Assembly: GCA_036498815.1 (NCBI GenBank)
Contig: DASYET010000028.1
Location: 241-64,240 of the forward strand
From: Bryobacteraceae bacterium
GTDB taxonomy: Bacteria; Acidobacteriota; Terriglobia; Bryobacterales; Bryobacteraceae
Reading direction: 5' to 3'
DNA: 64,000 nucleotides
Under the pieces are notes generated by a model. The model had not been told where the DNA came from. It made no database searches and was given only the letters and a program-made list of their open reading frames with translations. Position numbers and translations under genes: made by a program. This document shows positions 884 through 7,513 of this stretch, piece after piece; position 1 is the stretch's first letter; each line of letters starts with the position of its first letter.

Positions 884-1384
884 TTGCTACTCTTGGTTCG
901 AGTGCCCCAGAGCTTCGAGGAAATCTTCCTGCCGCATTTCAGCGCGGCCTACAACCTCGCCCGCTGGCTGACCGCTTCCGATTCCGACGCCGAAGATCTC
1001 TGCCACGATGCCTACGTAAAAGCGCTCGCCTCCTTCAAATCCTTCCGAGGCGCAAATCCCAAATCCTGGCTCCTCACCATCGTTCGCAACACCTGTTTCG
1101 ATTGGCTCCGTCAGCGCCGCCCGTCCGCACTCCTCCCCGTCGACGAGGAACTCCCCGCGCCCGGCCCATCTCCCGAAACCCAATATCTCCGTGAGCTCGA
1201 TCGCCACGCGCTCCAATCCGCTCTAGCGCGCCTGCCCGCCGAGTTTCAAGAAGTCCTCATCTTGCGTGAATTCGAAGACCTCTCCTACAAAGAAATCTCC
1301 GACATCGCCGGAGTCCCCCTGGGCACCGTAATGTCCCGTCTCGCCCGAGCGCGTCAGCGCCTCCGCACGGAGTTGAAACCATGA
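884..1384 (+). CDS. ECF (sigma-70 family) RNA polymerase sigma factor
   Basis: Region 2 (DAEDLCHDAYVKAL...NPKSWLLTIVRNTCFDWLRQRR) and region 4 HTH (LSYKEISDIAGVPLGTVMSRLARAR) are present. The start is TTG at 884; GTG at 902 is equally possible. The stop overlaps the next start (ATGA). Confidence 0.9.
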   Translation: MLLLVRVPQSFEEIFLPHFSAAYNLARWLTASDSDAEDLCHDAYVKALASFKSFRGANPKSWLLTIVRNTCFDWLRQRRPSALLPVDEELPAPGPSPETQYLRELDRHALQSALARLPAEFQEVLILREFEDLSYKEISDIAGVPLGTVMSRLARARQRLRTELKP

Positions 1385-2109
1385 CCTGCCCCGAAGTGAG
1401 AAAACAGCTCCAAGCCTTTCACGACGGCCAACTCGATCGCGCCGCCTCCGATGCCGTCTCCGAGCATCTGAGCCAGTGCCCCGAATGCATGTCAATCCTG
1501 GAAAGCGAAGAAAAGCTCTCGCGAGCCCTCCGCCAACCCGAGCTTCGCTTCACCCCGCCCTCCGGAGCCGAAGCCCGCCTGCGCCAGAGGCTCAAGCCGC
1601 AGCGAGCAACTCCAGCGTCGCGATGGTGGCTCGCTGCCGCCGCGGCGCTTCTTCTCGTCGGACTCGGCGTCACCTGGATCTCGCTCTCCGTCTCCGCCGA
1701 AAAGCAACTCGCGCTCGAAACGGTCAGCGATCATATCCGGTCATTGCAAGCCAACCATCTCACCGATGTTGTCTCCACCGACAACCACACCGTGAAACCG
1801 TGGTTCAACGGCAAGATCGACTTCTCGCCGACCGTCCAAGACCTCGCCGCCCGAGGCTACGAACTCTCGGGCGGCCGCCTCGACTATCTCGGAGGCCGCC
1901 CCGTCGCCGCGCTCGTTTATCGCCGCCGATTGCACGTCATCAACGTCTTCACTTGGCCCGCCGCCGAAAGGGATCGGGGCCCGTCCCAGGTCCTGACCCA
2001 ACAAGGCTACAATGTCGTCCGCTGGTCGCACGCGGGAATGACCTACTGGGCCGTCTCCGATCTAGCCTCCCCTGAGCTCTTGGATCTCGCCAACTTACTT
2101 CGGGAATAA
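1381..2109 (+). CDS. membrane-spanning zinc-finger (zf-HC2/ZAS) anti-sigma factor
   Basis: The N-terminus has C3-x25-H29-x3-C33-x2-C36 (HLSQCPEC). There is one TM segment (WWLAAAAALLLVGLGVTWISL). It is translationally coupled to the upstream ECF sigma gene. Confidence 0.85.
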   Translation: MTCPEVRKQLQAFHDGQLDRAASDAVSEHLSQCPECMSILESEEKLSRALRQPELRFTPPSGAEARLRQRLKPQRATPASRWWLAAAAALLLVGLGVTWISLSVSAEKQLALETVSDHIRSLQANHLTDVVSTDNHTVKPWFNGKIDFSPTVQDLAARGYELSGGRLDYLGGRPVAALVYRRRLHVINVFTWPAAERDRGPSQVLTQQGYNVVRWSHAGMTYWAVSDLASPELLDLANLLRE

Positions 2110-2150: not shown

Positions 2151-3059
2151 ATGAAAAAAATAGATCGACGCGGATTCTTGGAATGCATGGCCTGGGCAGG
2201 CTCCGGAGTTCTCTGGCAGATGGGGCAGGGCACTGCCCGAGGCCAAGTCCTGAGCGGACACACGCCCATGGGCTCCGGACTCAACTTCGTTCAGATCAGC
2301 GACAGCCACATCGGCTTCAGCGCTCCTGCCAACATGGACGTCACCGGCACCTTGCAGGAGACCGTCAATTTGATCAACGGTCTCGCCGCGCCACCCGCAT
2401 TCCTGCTGCACACCGGCGACATCACGCATCTTTCAAAGCCCGAAGAATTCGACACCGCCGCCGAGATCCTCAAGTCCTCGAAAGCCGAAATCTTCTACGT
2501 CCCCGGCGAGCATGACGTCATGGGTGCGGACTCGCACGCCTACCTCGACCGCTACGGCAAATCCACGCAAGGCGACGGTTGGTATAGCTTCGATCACAGC
2601 GGCGTGCATTTTGTGGGACTCGTCAACGTGAAGCTCCGCTCCGCCGGAGGCTTTGGCCGCCTGGGGCCCGATCAAATCGAGTGGCTCCGCCGCGATCTCG
2701 AAGCGAAATCCGCCAGTACCCCCATCGTTGTTTTTGCCCACATGCCTCTCTGGACCGCCTACGAGCAGTGGGGCTGGGGCACCAGCGACGCCATGGAGGC
2801 GATGCAGCTTCTGCGCCGCTTCGGCTCCGTCAGCGTCCTCAACGGGCACATCCACCAGACCATGCAGAAGGTGGAAGGCAACCTCTTCTTCCACACGGCG
2901 ATGTCGACGGCCTTCCCGCAGCCTGCTCCCGGAGCCGCCTCCGGACCCGGCCCCATGGTAGTCCCCGCAGACCGGCTCAGGAGCCTCCTGGGCCTGACCA
3001 AAGTCGGCTATGTCGCCGGAAAATCTCCGTTGGCCGTGGTCGACCAACCGCTGGGTTAG
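2151..3059 (+). CDS. Tat-signal metallophosphoesterase (calcineurin-like phosphoesterase)
   Basis: Twin-arginine signal (DRRGFLECMAWAGSG). Metallophosphoesterase motifs are present: ISDSH, HTGDITH, PGEHD and NGHIH. Confidence 0.85.
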   Translation: MKKIDRRGFLECMAWAGSGVLWQMGQGTARGQVLSGHTPMGSGLNFVQISDSHIGFSAPANMDVTGTLQETVNLINGLAAPPAFLLHTGDITHLSKPEEFDTAAEILKSSKAEIFYVPGEHDVMGADSHAYLDRYGKSTQGDGWYSFDHSGVHFVGLVNVKLRSAGGFGRLGPDQIEWLRRDLEAKSASTPIVVFAHMPLWTAYEQWGWGTSDAMEAMQLLRRFGSVSVLNGHIHQTMQKVEGNLFFHTAMSTAFPQPAPGAASGPGPMVVPADRLRSLLGLTKVGYVAGKSPLAVVDQPLG

Positions 3060-3697
3060 GGCCTTTTCTCCGGACCTTTCTCCGGACCTTTCTCCGGACC
3101 GTCCCACCGCTGCGCGTCGACCGGGGGCAAGCCGAGCAAATCCAGGGTCCGGTCGACGCTATGTTCCACCAAATCCGCCACGGTCTCCGGGTGGTTATAG
3201 AAGCCTGGAACCGGCGGAGCGATGATCGCGCCCATCTCGGCCAGAGCTGTCATGGAGCGAAGATGACCGAGATGGAAGGGCGACTCCCGGACCATCAAAA
3301 CCAGCCGCCGGCGCTCTTTCAGCGTGACGTCCGCCGCTCGAATCATCAGGTTGCCGCTTATCCCGGCCGCGATGGCCGACATACTGTGGATCGAGCACGG
3401 AGCGATCACCATTCCGCCGGTAAGGAACGATCCGCTGGCCAGCCGGCATCCTATATCCTCCGGCGGGTAACTGAATTCCGCCAAACTCCGGAAATCCGCC
3501 GCGGATTTTCCCAGCTCTAAGTGCGCGGTTCGTTCCCCTGAGCGCGAAAGAATCAAATGCACTTCCAAGTCCGCGTTCGCACGGAGCTTTTCCAGGAGTC
3601 GCCAACCGTAAACAGTACCGCTCGCACCAGTTACACCCACGACGATGCGCGATTTTCCAGGCTCTCGCACGCTCCTCCTTGTCTTGCTTTGTTCCAA
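3056..3697 (-). CDS. ubiX: flavin prenyltransferase UbiX
   Basis: IVVGVTGASGTVYGWRLLEKL flavoprotein fold, plus APCSIHSMSAIAAGISGNLMIRAADVTLKERRRLVLMVRE typical of UbiX/Pad1. The C-terminus ends in (GPEK)x3. Confidence 0.9.
   Translation of the reverse strand: MEQSKTRRSVREPGKSRIVVGVTGASGTVYGWRLLEKLRANADLEVHLILSRSGERTAHLELGKSAADFRSLAEFSYPPEDIGCRLASGSFLTGGMVIAPCSIHSMSAIAAGISGNLMIRAADVTLKERRRLVLMVRESPFHLGHLRSMTALAEMGAIIAPPVPGFYNHPETVADLVEHSVDRTLDLLGLPPVDAQRWDGPEKGPEKGPEKRP
3065..3100. repeat. 12-nt x3 perfect tandem repeat (TTTCTCCGGACC)
   Basis: Read directly from the sequence. It is in frame on the minus strand and encodes GPEKGPEKGPEK at the UbiX C-terminus. Confidence 0.95.
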
Positions 3698-3715
3698 AAA
3701 CGCAAACTCACCAGA

Positions 3716-3739
3716 CTTTTGTTCTGAATTCAGAACAAA
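3716..3739. promoter_or_regulatory. 24-bp perfect palindrome TTTTGTTCTGAATTCAGAACAAAA (candidate operator)
   Basis: Perfect inverted repeat read directly from the sequence. It lies in the divergent ubiX / HTH-regulator intergenic region and ends 3 nt upstream of a -35-like hexamer. Confidence 0.5.
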
Positions 3740-3742
3740 AAG

Positions 3743-3772
3743 CTTGCGATGGCCCGGTACTGGTAGGTATAA
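3743..3772 (+). promoter_or_regulatory. candidate sigma-70 promoter for the HTH regulator gene
   Basis: TTGCGA (3743-3748), an 18-nt spacer, then a perfect TATAAT (3767-3772). This is about 90 nt upstream of the ATG at 3864. Confidence 0.4.
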
Positions 3773-3863
3773 TCCTTACCCAGAGAGTCCGAACTTTCAA
3801 CCCTCTCAATCCGATGCCGGCATCCTCAAGGTCTCTAGGACGCCGCCCCCCAAGTCAACCATC

Positions 3864-4661
3864 ATGGAGGAAGCCGCACAGAAACTCAAGCGCGTCCGGG
3901 AGAGGCTCGGACTAAAGTACCGCCACGTGGAGGAAGCCACCACGCGGATCGCGAACGCGCACGAGAACGACGAATATCTGGTGTCGCTCAGCCGCCTTTC
4001 GGATATTGAAAACAAAGGTACAATGCCGACCTTGTACCGTTTGTATTCGCTGTGCGCGGTTTACCGGCTGGATTTTAAAGAGGCACTCTCCTGGTACGGC
4101 ATCAAGCTGGAACAGCTGCCGATCGACGCGACGCTAGTCGAACTTCCCCGTACACAACTTGTGGGGATTCAAGCAAACGAGGACACGGAAGTCCACTTGC
4201 CGATTTCGCTCGAGCCCGGGATCGACCTGGCGAAAACCGAATTCCTCAGCCGGATGATCCAACGGTGGGGCAAGTTACCTCTAGTACTACTCCAGAATAT
4301 GGATGTAAAGAACCACCTCTACGGATTGATCGGCACCGAGGACTGGTTCATGTTTCCGATCATCGCGCCGGGATCGCTGGTGGTGATCGACGACAGCCGG
4401 CGTAAGATCATCAATACGGGCTGGATCACGGAGTTCGAGCGGCCGATCTATTTTGTAGAACACCGGAATGGTTATTGTTGCGCGTGGTGCTCCCAGAAGG
4501 AAGACCGCATTACGCTGCATCCGCATCCGTCCTCGCAGTACGATCCTGAGTTCTATACGTACCCCAGCGAGATTGAAATTATCGGGCAGGTCACTCAAGT
4601 CGCGATGACGCTCGATCCGGCGGTCCGCCGGAGACCGCGCCAGGAAAACTCCGGGCTTTAG
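3864..4661 (+). CDS. XRE-family HTH transcriptional regulator with LexA/CI-like (peptidase S24-like) C-terminal domain
   Basis: HTH_XRE region: LKRVRERLGLKYRHVEEATTRIAN...SRLSDIENKGTMPTLYRLYSLCAVYRLDF. The C-terminal pattern APGSLVVIDDS...ITLHPHP...IEIIGQVTQV matches the S24 beta-fold. I chose the start at M74 of ORF 3645..4661 because the upstream part overlaps the ubiX 5' end. Confidence 0.8.
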   Translation: MEEAAQKLKRVRERLGLKYRHVEEATTRIANAHENDEYLVSLSRLSDIENKGTMPTLYRLYSLCAVYRLDFKEALSWYGIKLEQLPIDATLVELPRTQLVGIQANEDTEVHLPISLEPGIDLAKTEFLSRMIQRWGKLPLVLLQNMDVKNHLYGLIGTEDWFMFPIIAPGSLVVIDDSRRKIINTGWITEFERPIYFVEHRNGYCCAWCSQKEDRITLHPHPSSQYDPEFYTYPSEIEIIGQVTQVAMTLDPAVRRRPRQENSGL

Positions 4662-4762
4662 TACTGCTTTTCCAGTTTCCGAAAGCGTTGTCTCAGGATT
4701 AAGAAAACTCCTCCAGGCGCTATACCGTACCAGGTGTACGGTTCTAGACCCAGGAGGTTTCA

Positions 4763-4957
4763 ATGTTTAAATTTGTGTCCCGGCTCGGGGCATTTCTCCT
4801 TACCGCTATCGCGGTCGACTTGGCGCACGCCGATGTTGGCATTCCGTGTCCCACTTGCTACTGGGACGGAGCTTGCGTGGCTCAGTTCGGTGCGGGATGG
4901 TATTACTGCGGAACGGACGACGACGGCTGGTACTGGTGCTGCCCGGTGGGCGGCTAA
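4763..4957 (+). CDS. small secreted Cys/Trp/Tyr-rich mini-protein (64-aa precursor)
   Basis: AGGAGG lies 5 nt upstream of the ATG. Signal-peptide-like N-terminus MFKFVSRLGAFLLTAIAVDLAHA. The predicted 41-aa mature part has 6 Cys, 4 Trp, 4 Tyr and 8 Gly (DVGIPCPTCYWDGACVAQFGAGWYYCGTDDDGWYWCCPVGG). Confidence 0.65.
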   Translation: MFKFVSRLGAFLLTAIAVDLAHADVGIPCPTCYWDGACVAQFGAGWYYCGTDDDGWYWCCPVGG

Positions 4958-5036
4958 AGCATGTTGGGCGCGGAGTGCCGTCTACCGCGCCCTTCCCTTG
5001 AAAAATCCAGATTCCCTTCGAGAAAGAAGTCATTTC

Positions 5037-5579
5037 ATGAAAAACAATCGTGTAGCAACTATTTTTGCGCTGGCCCTGGTGGGTGCGCTGATCGCATACT
5101 TTCCGCCGGGCCCGTTCAGCTGGCGCACGTTCTTGCTGGATCCGTCGTCGAACGAAGCAAAGCTTATGTTCTTGGCGAAGGTGTATCTGGCGCCCGCCCT
5201 CTTGTCCATGGTGGCGGTGGTGGGTTTCCGGGTGCAGATGGGATTGTCGATGACCGGCGCGGCGCCGAGCGCCGTGTTTCCGCTGGCGCTGCTGGCATCC
5301 GGCGCGATGATGGCCGGGTTACGTTCGATGTCCGGGGGCGTGGGCGGAGTTCCCGGTTACGCGGTGGGGATGTCGCTAGGCTACACGCTGATGGCGAATA
5401 TCTACGGGTTCAAGAAGACGGAGCAGACGGTGTTCGGGAGGCCGGTTCTGAAGATCGTGTGGCGGAAGCAGGCGCTGGCAAATGCGACGCCGGTGGCGCA
5501 AACCGGCCCAGGGGTGGGTCCGGCCTCCTCGGCGGTGGGTCAAGCTCCCGCGGTGGGTCAAGCTTCCGCGGCAGCGTAA
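5037..5579 (+). CDS. polytopic membrane protein, unknown function
   Basis: 180 aa from M102 of ORF 4734..5579, with about 4 hydrophobic segments (VATIFALALVGALIAYF, LAPALLSMVAVVGF, VFPLALLASGAMMAGL, AVGMSLGYTLMANIYGF). The tail is low-complexity A/G/P/Q. The upstream part of the ORF is R/T/A-rich and overlaps the peptide gene. Confidence 0.65.
   Translation: MKNNRVATIFALALVGALIAYFPPGPFSWRTFLLDPSSNEAKLMFLAKVYLAPALLSMVAVVGFRVQMGLSMTGAAPSAVFPLALLASGAMMAGLRSMSGGVGGVPGYAVGMSLGYTLMANIYGFKKTEQTVFGRPVLKIVWRKQALANATPVAQTGPGVGPASSAVGQAPAVGQASAAA
5532..5567 (+). repeat. 18-nt tandem duplication (GCGGTGGGTCAAGCTNCC x2)
   Basis: Two adjacent copies with 1 mismatch, read directly. They encode AVGQAP/AVGQAS in the tail of the membrane protein. 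Confidence 0.9.
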
Positions 5580-5604
5580 CGGCAGGGGAGGCGGCGGCGC
5601 CGGA

Positions 5605-6030
5605 TCAGCACTTCAGGGTTTCCACCAGAATGGCGAATTCCCGGAGGAAGAGCTGTTGTTCCGCATCGCGCGCGGAGGCCGGAAGGTAGCTGCCCGGAAT
5701 CCCGGCCTTGGCCCAATATTCGACCACGGCGCAGGAGGGAGGCTCCACGCTCTCCAGGTATTCCACCAGATCCTGGCGTTTCTGAGCGAGGGGCAATTTG
5801 AGCCATTGCTGGAAGAGCTGGGAATGAGAATCGCCTAAAGCGCGCCGGCTTTCGTCGCGTCCGAAGATCGATCCCAGGCCGTGGTGATTGTAAATGCCGG
5901 AGTTAGGGTCGCGCAGGGAAGCCAGATAAGCGAGGCGGCCGAACAGGCTGGGAATCCGGGACAGCGTGTTCTTGAATAAATCGGCGCTGGCCGACCCCGC
6001 GAGCATTGCTTTGGGCCTGAATTGCGGCAC
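5605..6030 (-). CDS. hypothetical protein (no recognised domain)
   Basis: The C-terminal 133-141 aa of ORF 5605..6498 look protein-like (LFGRLAYLASLRDPNSGIYNHHGLGSIFGRDESRRALGDSHSQLFQQWLKL...). GTG at 6030 is preceded by GAGG 5 nt upstream; ATG at 6006 is the alternative. The rest of the long ORF is R/Q-rich and antisense to the gene at 6094. Confidence 0.55.
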   Translation of the reverse strand: MPQFRPKAMLAGSASADLFKNTLSRIPSLFGRLAYLASLRDPNSGIYNHHGLGSIFGRDESRRALGDSHSQLFQQWLKLPLAQKRQDLVEYLESVEPPSCAVVEYWAKAGIPGSYLPASARDAEQQLFLREFAILVETLKC

Positions 6031-6093
6031 TGTCGCCTCAAACTGATTGTAAGCTATTCGGATTGCGGCGGCGGGCCCCAGGCGTCCTCCTGA

Positions 6094-6879
6094 ATGGTAG
6101 ACTTGAGGACACTCTTGAGTCTCTACGAAGCACTCGACCATTGGTTCCAGTACTTGAACCTCGCAGGGGATGTCGCGCTGCTGGCGGCGCTGGCATGGCG
6201 AAAATTGGCGGGCGTCTATCCGGTGCTTATCGTCTATTTCCTGCTGGATCTGTTGGAGGCGGTGGCGGCCTATGGCCTCGGCGAGCAGTACCAGCTTCCC
6301 CTGTACTATTCGTTTCAGGCGCTCAAGTGGGCTCTGGCGTTCTGGTTCGTATTGGATCTGTATGGGCGGATTCTGTCGCCCTATGCGGCGCTGGCCAAGT
6401 TTGGGCGCGGGACGGTGGGGGGCCTGCTGGCCTTGTCGATCGCGGCCTCGGTCCCGACCTTTTTCGTCGAACTCAACCGGCCTTTCGAGCCGGACCATTT
6501 CGGCTTCCTGATGAACCGGTTTGAGCGCATCGCGGATCTGACGATTGCCGTCCTGGTGGTGCTGATGAGCATTTTTCTCATCTGGTACCCGGTTAAAGTG
6601 CGGCGCAACGTGGCGGCGTATATGGCGGGATTTGCCGTGGATTTCAGTGCCCGGGCGCTGGCATTAACCGGCATCGACTGGTGGCGGCAATATTACCGGC
6701 AGATCGATGCGGCGATGCTGGCGGTCGCCTTCGGGTGCATGTTGTTCTGGATTCTGGTGATGCGGCCGGAGGGCGAGGTCCGTACGATGACGGGGCACGG
6801 CTGGAATGAGGACGAGGCCCATCGTTTAAGCCGGCAATTGGACGAGATCAATGACCGGCTGGAACGTCTGTTGCACTAA
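6094..6879 (+). CDS. polytopic membrane protein with C-terminal coiled-coil-like tail, unknown function
   Basis: 261 aa with about 6-7 hydrophobic helices (VYPVLIVYFLLDLLEAVAAYGL, ALKWALAFWFVLDLY, TIAVLVVLMSIFLIWY, AMLAVAFGCMLFWILV). The tail is charged (NEDEAHRLSRQLDEINDRLERLLH). Confidence 0.7.
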   Translation: MVDLRTLLSLYEALDHWFQYLNLAGDVALLAALAWRKLAGVYPVLIVYFLLDLLEAVAAYGLGEQYQLPLYYSFQALKWALAFWFVLDLYGRILSPYAALAKFGRGTVGGLLALSIAASVPTFFVELNRPFEPDHFGFLMNRFERIADLTIAVLVVLMSIFLIWYPVKVRRNVAAYMAGFAVDFSARALALTGIDWWRQYYRQIDAAMLAVAFGCMLFWILVMRPEGEVRTMTGHGWNEDEAHRLSRQLDEINDRLERLLH

Positions 6880-6930
6880 CTGCGCACCTTGCTGGCGATT
6901 TATTCCGCTTTAAATCGATAAAATAGGGGT

Positions 6931-6959
6931 TGCATTTGAAGACGCTCTTGCGTATCCTG
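6931..6959 (+). promoter_or_regulatory. candidate sigma-70 promoter
   Basis: TTGCAT (6931-6936), a 17-nt spacer, then TATCCT (6954-6959). This is 30 nt upstream of the ATG at 6989, in an AT-richer spacer. Confidence 0.3.
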
Positions 6960-6988
6960 TAAAGCATTATGAAGGGAACGGCCTCCTA

Positions 6989-7513
6989 ATGACGAACTGG
7001 CTTCCGGTAATCGCGATGAGTGGTGTCGGCGGGATGTTGTTGGGAATGGGGACGCTGTTATGGGTCCGTTTACGCGGGTACCGTCGTGCATCCGCGGGCA
7101 ACTCGGTTCCGCCGGGTGAGTTCGGCGCGGCGCGGCTGGCTCCCTTGGAGCGGTTGATGAGCGGCGACGATCTGGAGTTTCTGCGCGAGTTCTCGGCGTG
7201 CCGTCCGCATTTGGCGGCGCAATGGGAACGGGAGCGGCGGCAGATTTTCCGGCTGTATCTGCGGGAGGCGGCCGCGGAGTTTCAGCGGGTGCATGGCGAA
7301 GCCCGGCAACTGGTGGCGCGCGCCCCCGAAGAGCACGCCGATCTGGTGGGCAAGCTGATGCGGCAACAGGTCACCTTCTGGGTCACGCTCACCAAGATCG
7401 AACTGCATCTGGCTCTGGGCGGGCTGGGACTGGGCGAAATCGACGCGCGCAAGATTGTCGCGCTGATCGAGGTCACGCAGGCCGAGGTGCGGCCGGGGCT
7501 CCGGACGGCTTAG
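6989..7513 (+). CDS. hypothetical single-pass membrane protein with helical cytoplasmic domain
   Basis: 174 aa. N-terminal TM segment (LPVIAMSGVGGMLLGMGTLLWV) followed by an R/E/A-rich helical region. No known motif recognised. Confidence 0.6.
   Translation: MTNWLPVIAMSGVGGMLLGMGTLLWVRLRGYRRASAGNSVPPGEFGAARLAPLERLMSGDDLEFLREFSACRPHLAAQWERERRQIFRLYLREAAAEFQRVHGEARQLVARAPEEHADLVGKLMRQQVTFWVTLTKIELHLALGGLGLGEIDARKIVALIEVTQAEVRPGLRTA

Follow-up and report, generated by a model that had tools for sequence, protein, structure and literature searches.

Gene Organization and Pairing

The DNA analyzed here is a stretch of 64,000 nucleotides (nt), referred to as the window, from a member of the family Bryobacteraceae within the Acidobacteriota (GenBank assembly GCA_036498815.1, contig DASYET010000028.1, positions 241 to 64,240). 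On its forward strand lie three consecutive genes that code for a regulator of 265 amino acids (aa; 3864-4661), an exported cysteine-rich peptide of 64 aa (4763-4957), and a membrane protein of 180 aa (5037-5579), and the spacers between them measure exactly 101 and 79 nt, as described in a first-pass annotation made by a model from the sequence alone. In the same annotation the region begins at 3716; this position is not a gene start and falls on a palindrome in the spacer between the regulator gene and the neighboring ubiX gene. An alignment of homologs sets the start at the ATG at 3864, from which the conserved N-terminus MEEAxQKLKR is encoded.

The genes for the peptide and the membrane protein form a genuine and inseparable pair. 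A profile of the membrane protein retrieves 7 species-representative genomes, all of them metagenome-assembled genomes of Bryobacterales/Bryobacteraceae, and 18 metagenome contigs beyond those obtained by exact-protein look-ups; a scan of the species-representative genomes with the peptide motif gave no match. In every locus with enough upstream sequence (34 loci, Bryobacteraceae/Bryobacterales), the peptide gene is located just upstream of the membrane protein gene. A tblastn survey of all loci reveals that most of them share one syntenic block, often together with the flanking genes of the window itself, in which ubiX on the reverse strand is followed by the genes for the regulator, the peptide, and the membrane protein, by rev133 on the reverse strand, and by mem261, p174, and a nuoI-like ferredoxin gene.

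The regulator gene is linked to the pair less strictly, and the idea that a cassette of three genes travels together did not survive a check of co-occurrence. Four loci harbor the pair without a working regulator gene next to it. A methyltransferase gene is found upstream of the pair in L012, where the regulator is absent, and a divergent gene for an extracytoplasmic function (ECF) sigma factor is found there in L026. ECF sigma and anti-sigma factor genes precede the pair in L035, which is missing the regulator as well as the operator-like dyad described below. In the fourth locus, L029, a frameshift and a deletion have turned the regulator gene into a pseudogene (6882-7488) and only a 31-aa remnant of ubiX is left; the genes for the peptide, the membrane protein, and Rev133 and the operator-like sites O1 and O2 are intact. 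Conversely, in three lineages, represented by the contig sets L038, L039/L040, and L042/L043, the regulator gene abuts a rev133 homolog and the genes for peptide and membrane protein are not present.

Identity matrices of UbiX, the regulator, Rev133, the membrane protein, and the peptide resolve the same clades, and neither a transfer RNA (tRNA) gene nor an integrase gene nor a flanking repeat was found at the locus. Given the synteny, the concordant matrices, and the absence of mobility genes, the pair is inherited vertically within a chromosomal neighborhood and is not a mobile cassette. With regard to its origin, the pair looks like an insertion of about 0.94 kb (about 4662-5600) into an older arrangement of regulator gene and rev133. 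Base composition had been taken as a sign of an accessory origin, and a local dip in GC content does extend from 3400 to 4800. The dip holds for the regulator gene (55.9%) and the spacers (48-53%) but not for the genes of the peptide (60.0%) and the membrane protein (63.5%), the mean of the window being 61.8%. As the GC content at third codon positions (GC3) of the regulator gene (71.8%) is comparable to that of its neighbors and the genes of the pair are at the window mean, an accessory origin obtains no compositional support.

The Putatively Exported Peptide and Its Family

The precursor peptide starts with a Sec-type signal peptide, MFKFVSRLGAFLLTAIAVDLAHA (4763-4831), for which cleavage is predicted after A-H-A, and the mature peptide of 41 aa, DVGIPCPTCYWDGACVAQFGAGWYYCGTDDDGWYWCCPVGG (4832-4954), contains six cysteines and nine aromatic residues and has a net charge of −5. 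Its gene is preceded by a GGAGG ribosome-binding site. That this is a real gene, coding for a cysteine-rich mini-protein with predicted export as had been suspected, is borne out by the existence of a family of homologs. A word-indexed search yielded 7 homologs, and 5 further small open reading frames (ORFs) emerged when 1.8 billion representatives were searched exhaustively with a profile; the remainder was read directly from the loci. In total, the family comprises 36 aligned members plus one added later (L041), all of 63-76 aa save for a leaderless form of 44 aa. A signal with n-, h-, and c-regions and an AxA cleavage site is conserved in 35 of the 36 aligned members, and all exported members possess six cysteines and the motif [FY]G-x2-[WY]-x-YCG ... 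[WY]CC. Across the family, mature peptides are anionic (−3 to −9), nearly devoid of Lys and Arg, and consist of aromatic residues to an extent of 20-30%.

An AlphaFold model of the peptide consists of a strand, a helix, and a hairpin, with predicted local distance difference test (pLDDT) values of 85-89 for residues 31-60. Comparison of this model by Foldseek with the PDB and with viral structures provides no match with E<1, and the peptide has no match in Pfam, NCBIfam, PADLOC, PHROGs, or PDB sequences; the best hits of a PDB profile search are 'YYC...GW.W' stretches from the complementarity-determining region 3 of antibodies, at chance level.

Several candidate relationships were discarded. 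Among the proteins retrieved by the exhaustive search, three large ones (P0026, P0029, and P0031) were excluded from the family as low-complexity or signal-peptide look-alikes. A resemblance to hevein-like chitin-binding domains ('WxxCG..D..YC') is not reflected in any Pfam match, and the order of the cysteines is different. If the divergent 'Flavoprotein' gene encoded an EpiD-like peptide decarboxylase, the peptide might be a ribosomally synthesized and post-translationally modified peptide, but this gene product scores as a bona fide UbiX and ubiX persists where the pair is absent.

Two further observations concern relatives of the peptide. The leaderless form of 44 aa, MGEPIVIYPEPGDNAFNACQNQLGDLYAMCGTTGDGGIICCPVW, is encoded in L035 (7730-7864), has four cysteines, and possesses a strong ribosome-binding site and an in-frame stop codon just upstream; its gene precedes that of the most divergent homolog of the membrane protein (39% identity). 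In loci that do not contain the pair, an ORF for a signal peptide and a mature part of about 40-50 aa, for example MLKKALLLAALTLSLATMIGAAAPDMPTPDCYPCAVPPAK, is located between rev133 and the mem261 homolog (L043:6324-6479, L038:6492-6650, and L039:4269-4451). The signal and the P-x-P-C-Y-P-C start of these products resemble the N-terminal half of the peptide family, and in L038 an operator-like site is found upstream of the ORF, at position 6384.

The Membrane Protein

The AlphaFold model of the membrane protein (mean pLDDT 77) comprises four helices, three of which are strongly hydrophobic and one of which is a glycine zipper. Counts of positive residues predict both termini to be inside, and the invariant segments YFPPGPFSW and GGVGGVPGYAxGM are located on the predicted periplasmic side, the latter constituting the GxxxG glycine zipper of helix 4. 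The C-terminal region consists of a β-hairpin of about 20 residues and a disordered tail (pLDDT <50). No match to the membrane protein is detected in Pfam, NCBIfam, PADLOC, PHROGs, or PDB sequences, nor among PDB folds (Foldseek, E<1). The earlier description of a protein with roughly four transmembrane segments and no recognizable domain is therefore accurate, and profile searches assign the protein to no housekeeping family. A tandem duplication of an 18-nt unit (5532-5571; 2.2 copies, 95% identical), encoding AVGQAP/AVGQAS, is real as well. However, it is not a sign of recent turnover but ordinary slippage in the disordered tail, which varies in length and sequence among homologs.

Evolutionary Rates

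Of all products of the locus, the mature peptide evolves fastest; between the clade of the window and other clades, identities are 32-50% in the mature peptide but reach 43-60% in the membrane protein and 62-71% in the regulator. For 7 of 10 pairs of mature peptides, ratios of nonsynonymous to synonymous substitution rates (dN/dS) obtained with the Nei-Gojobori method lie between 0.04 and 0.24, indicating purifying selection. The closest pair (L013:9689-9895 and L022:7693-7893) shows 22.5 nonsynonymous and 2.5 synonymous differences (dN/dS ~1.8), and in these two loci the membrane proteins are 96% and the flanking genes 95-96% identical. The other two comparisons involving L013 give values of 0.42 and 0.85. 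Identities of the peptide correlate with those of the membrane protein (r = 0.77; partial r = 0.66 given the regulator) more tightly than either does with those of the regulator, although pairwise identity values are non-independent and the correlation is a hint only.

Regulator and Operator-Like Sites

The regulator is the most widespread and most conserved of the three gene products; databases contain 1907 homologs, and the 120 listed are all at least 61% identical. The first-pass annotation had called it a repressor, and a weak resemblance of this kind does exist, but both Pfam matches remain below gathering thresholds. For the N-terminal part, an XRE-type helix-turn-helix (HTH) is indicated by HTH_31 (20.7 bits, cut-off 27, E=5e-4) and HTH_3 (18.2 bits, cut-off 23), and some homologs carry precomputed HTH_3/HTH_19 matches. 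Similarity to S24/CI-like domains is marginal and confined to the C-terminal part (Peptidase_S24, 14.4 bits, cut-off 23.3, E=0.03), and a PHROG repressor family is matched with E=0.05. No relative was found among PDB sequences, and hhalign produced no alignment between the regulator profile and E. coli LexA. In an alignment judged by eye, the positions expected for a Ser/Lys dyad are occupied by E/D159 and E199, so that RecA-type self-cleavage seems unlikely. Within the C-terminal domain (residues 205-222, window 4476-4529), C206-x-W-C209, i.e., C206-x2-C209, and P-H221-P are invariant, and this CxxC/His site could be involved in metal or thiol-redox sensing.

Between ubiX and the regulator gene lies the perfect palindrome TGTTCTGAATTCAGAACA (O1, 3720-3737), a GTTC-N8-GAAC dyad that is unique in the window, where none is expected by chance, and that may serve the regulator gene as an operator. 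Fourteen loci contain it without change and the others with 1-2 mismatches; its position is invariably in front of the regulator gene, even where the pair is absent. O1 abuts the −35 hexamer of a sigma-70-like promoter match of the regulator gene (TTGCGA-18-TATAAT, 3744-3773, forward strand), which agrees with the consensus at 10 of 12 positions and is the sole such site between 3500 and 6200; it is a consensus match only.

A degenerate dyad with the spacing of O1, TTTC-N8-GAAA (O2, TTTCCAGTTTCCGAAA, 4669-4684), is situated 94 nt upstream of the start codon of the peptide gene. The pattern KTTC-N8-GAAM is present at −94 to −108 from the peptide start in 25 of 30 loci (chance expectation 0.018 per window), and it is the best-conserved block of the spacer between regulator and peptide genes. 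The dyad sites are retained in L012 and L026, though the regulator gene is not adjacent there. Because the dyad of the regulator promoter recurs upstream of the peptide gene, the link between regulator and pair that had been assumed earlier gains support, and the pair likely belongs to a wider regulon that this regulator controls, presumably by binding to O1 and O2. A third GTTC-N8-GAAC-like copy is located between rev133 and mem261 in several loci (L013:10980, L014:10982, L021:3321, L022:8980, L029:8980, L031:1038, and L038:6384), which suggests that the uncharacterized genes rev133 and mem261 are also under the control of the regulator. At the equivalent place of the window (6007-6093), no such copy was found with up to 5 mismatches allowed.

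RNA Elements Around the Peptide Gene

The leader of the peptide gene contains, just before the ribosome-binding site, the inverted repeat ACCGTAC-N5-GTACGGT (4724-4742, forward strand). It is conserved in the clade of the window; other clades have another hairpin, GGGGAA...TTCCCC, in its place, so that the 5'-untranslated region may possess a conserved structure.

Directly after the stop codon of the peptide gene, a GC-rich hairpin (4966-4992, forward strand) is a candidate for a partial terminator or a stabilizer of the mRNA 3'-end. A strong hairpin follows the peptide stop codon in all 22 of the 22 peptide-membrane spacers that were folded. In the alignment, 92.6% of cells pair compared with 82.7% in shuffles, none of 500 shuffles reaching this value, and the covariation score is 0.437 versus 0.251; slid controls pair to 32-69%. 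The hairpin of the window is not a canonical T-tract terminator, and most copies are missing the canonical U-tract. In combination with the GGAGG ribosome-binding site of the peptide gene and the weak one of the membrane protein gene, the hairpin suggests that more peptide than partner is produced.

Neighboring Genes

Upstream of and divergent from the regulator gene, ubiX (3056-3697, reverse strand) codes for a flavin prenyltransferase (NCBIfam NF004685, 235 bits, cut-off 188) and is a conserved neighbor outside the pair that is syntenic in most loci. Its 3' end contains a perfect tandem repeat of three 12-nt units, TTTCTCCGGACC (3065-3100), which encodes (GPEK)3 at the C-terminus; there, ubiX and the end of a convergent metallophosphoesterase gene overlap. 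On the other side, the convergent gene rev133 (5605-6006, reverse strand, 133 aa) bounds the pair; a reverse-strand ORF of 297 aa (5605-6498) is an over-extension of rev133, homologs of which have 133-156 aa. Further downstream, mem261 (6094-6879, forward strand) codes for a polytopic membrane protein with a conserved C-terminal segment GHRWN...QLDxINxRL and is followed by p174 (6989-7513, forward strand). Rev133, Mem261, and P174 are conserved across the Bryobacterales and have no family match in Pfam, NCBIfam, or the PDB.

More generally, the six uncharacterized proteins show no match above threshold in Pfam, NCBIfam, PADLOC, or PHROGs, the weak HTH and S24 similarities of the regulator being the exceptions, and PDB profile searches with the peptide, its partner, the regulator, Rev133, and Mem261 return chance-level matches only. 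Elsewhere in the window, no paralogs of the peptide or membrane protein genes exist, and Rfam identifies no known RNA between 3400 and 6300. Genes for ECF sigma factors are found near the pair in three contexts (window 884-2109, L035:6157-7586, and L026:5-322), accompanied in the window and in L035 by a gene for a zf-HC2 anti-sigma factor; this proximity may be a coincidence or an alternative mode of control.

Interpretation of the Locus

The explanation that we favor, with a probability of roughly 40%, is that the pair consists of an effector peptide and a cognate membrane protein that protects from it or handles it, i.e., a toxin/immunity-like pair. We infer an antagonistic function of this kind from the strict pairing, the partner without a recognizable domain, the hairpin that might set the stoichiometry, the fast evolution of the peptide, and the possible orphan partner in L035, where the membrane protein gene beside a leaderless peptide with four cysteines would fit an orphan immunity gene. 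The functional unit would be an operon of two genes rather than of three. A strongly translated precursor of 64 aa would be exported by the Sec system and cleaved by signal peptidase after A-H-A, and the mature product is expected to be an oxidized, anionic, and aromatic-rich mini-protein of about 41 aa with three putative disulfides. Its partner would reside in the inner membrane as a four-helix protein with conserved motifs facing the periplasm. In one branch of the Bryobacterales, the pair seems to have been inserted between a pre-existing gene for an XRE-type regulator and its convergent neighbor and to have been transmitted vertically since then. The regulator would control the pair through the dyad, and the hairpin probably ends or stabilizes most transcripts after the peptide gene, causing an excess of peptide.

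Several points weigh against a toxin/immunity-like pair. Every mature peptide is anionic (−3 to −9), unlike most membrane-active bacteriocins. Acidobacteria are diderm, and genes for exporters, lysis, or secretion were not found in the conserved block or in flanks of 5-10 kb, though they might be present elsewhere in the genome; in a diderm host without an exporter gene in the block, the peptide may stay in the periplasm. The pair occurs as a single copy at a fixed chromosomal site, with concordant trees and dN/dS values of mostly 0.04-0.24, which looks like a 'core' function of the lineage instead of strain-level warfare. Similarity to bacteriocin, immunity, or defense families or a significant fold match was not detected with Pfam, NCBIfam, PADLOC, PHROGs, the PDB, or Foldseek. 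Finally, O2 is located upstream of the expected −35 position, so that activation instead of repression is possible.

Some of these points favor the main alternative, which we regard as somewhat less likely, namely a non-antagonistic periplasmic module in which the peptide would bind to the four-helix protein as a ligand, form part of it as a subunit, or modulate it, and would fulfill an envelope, redox, or stress role within the regulon; the four-helix protein could perhaps be an oligomeric channel or scaffold built on its glycine zipper. The diderm host and the absence of a nearby exporter gene agree with such a module, as does vertical, single-copy inheritance under mostly purifying selection. 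The motifs of the partner, among them the GxxxGxxxGxxxG zipper, lie on its predicted periplasmic face, and the regulator possesses an invariant CxxC and His. Also, the dyad recurs before the rev133/mem261 promoter region in many loci, and where the pair is absent from a lineage, a shorter related signal-peptide ORF precedes another polytopic membrane protein gene. However, the pair is dispensable in several lineages of the Bryobacterales, a fastest-evolving peptide with one burst of dN/dS ~1.8 would be unusual for a structural partner, and a channel or enzyme is not hinted at by any homology.

It is improbable that the exported peptide is a cell-cell signal that is sensed via the membrane protein and feeds back on the regulator. 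Neither a kinase nor a protease nor any other domain that could serve as an output is found in the membrane protein, just the hairpin of about 20 residues and the disordered tail, the regulator is widespread without the pair and the pair is present without the regulator, and for a folded peptide of 4.4 kDa no route across the outer membrane is evident, although the order of regulator, peptide, and membrane protein genes and the dyad common to the peptide promoter and the regulator would suit such a circuit and lineage-specific bursts of peptide evolution resemble switches of pheromone specificity. A recently acquired, mobile three-gene accessory island, for which the GC dip (3400-4800), the 18-nt duplication, and the absence of the pair from some Bryobacterales could be quoted, is hardly tenable. 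The dip is limited to the regulator gene and the spacers at normal GC3, and among the three genes it is that of the regulator that is best conserved and occurs most widely. About 30 loci are syntenic from ubiX to the nuoI-like gene, with concordant gene trees and identity matrices, and tRNA and mobility genes and flanking repeats were not found.

In the Acidobacteria, which abound in soils and are difficult to study, peptides and gene regulation are almost uncharted. The locus offers a peptide/membrane protein pair without known relatives, a candidate operator for an uncharacterized regulator found widely across the order, and a conserved RNA hairpin. If the peptide is bioactive, it would provide an antimicrobial scaffold whose anionic character is unusual; otherwise, the pair gives access to an envelope function not known so far. 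In an extended and more speculative version, the peptides might define a new class of anionic, aromatic-rich mini-proteins with three disulfides from a Gram-negative phylum of soil bacteria that act together with a new family of glycine-zipper four-helix proteins, either as an unconventional toxin and immunity protein or as periplasmic ligand and receptor, within a GTTC-N8-GAAC regulon of uncharacterized genes (regulator, rev133, mem261, and p174) across the Bryobacterales; we would put this forward only with considerable reserve.

Comparison With Known Systems

Bacterial cis-defensins are defined by a CxxxC motif in the helix and a CxC motif in a strand (PMC11561630). With these and other CS-αβ (cysteine-stabilized αβ) peptides, such as xanthusin and actifensin/AMSIN (PMC11561630, PMC6989792), the peptide described here has in common a size of about 40 aa, predicted export, and three putative disulfides, and its predicted core likewise consists of one helix packed on a β-hairpin. 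However, the peptide is not a cis-defensin, as CxxxC and CxC are absent and its pattern is C-x2/3-C ... C ... YCG ... CC. The predicted helix (residues 35-42) holds one cysteine and the last strand contains CC, not CxC. The best structural match to a defensin, the plant protein 1bk8, is non-significant (Foldseek, E=7.3, template modeling score 0.29-0.34).

Sec-dependent, unmodified class II-type bacteriocins, such as those of the enterocin P type, resemble the pair in that a small signal-bearing peptide is encoded next to a small multi-helix membrane protein without enzymatic domain, and a gene for a transcription factor next door is a further likeness to class II-type loci. The four-helix partner can further be compared with the immunity proteins of Gram-negative bacteriocins that span the inner membrane several times (colicin M-like systems, PMC5277000). 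As in bacteriocin systems, the peptide has a Sec signal and the adjacent membrane protein gene, with a putative immunity role, is co-inherited in four genomic contexts; a cationic peptide, an export route nearby, and membership in a described family are not found. In contrast to the established bacteriocin/immunity systems, with which no relationship in sequence or fold exists, the peptide is anionic and aromatic-rich where theirs are usually cationic, the host is diderm, no gene for export or lysis is present in the block or its flanks, and the locus is chromosomal, syntenic, and vertically inherited.

Repressors of the CI/PrtR/LexA type, which combine an HTH with a self-cleaving S24 domain, gate the production of bacteriocins or pyocins. 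The regulator resembles them only weakly, in a putative XRE-type HTH, a marginal similarity to S24, and the palindromes at its own and at the peptide gene promoter, and it differs in that Pfam scores are sub-threshold, matches to LexA and the PDB are missing, and a Ser/Lys dyad is not evident. We know of no described SOS box that corresponds to the GTTC-N8-GAAC dyad. Differential mRNA levels are set by a stem-loop after a small, highly expressed gene in several operons, for example those containing lantibiotic or pilin structural genes. The conserved GC-rich hairpin between the peptide stop codon and the partner gene is alike in position and may act in a similar way, but it mostly does not carry a canonical U-tract. 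The locus is a familiar architecture built from families without described relatives, and it constitutes an incremental discovery and not a new principle.

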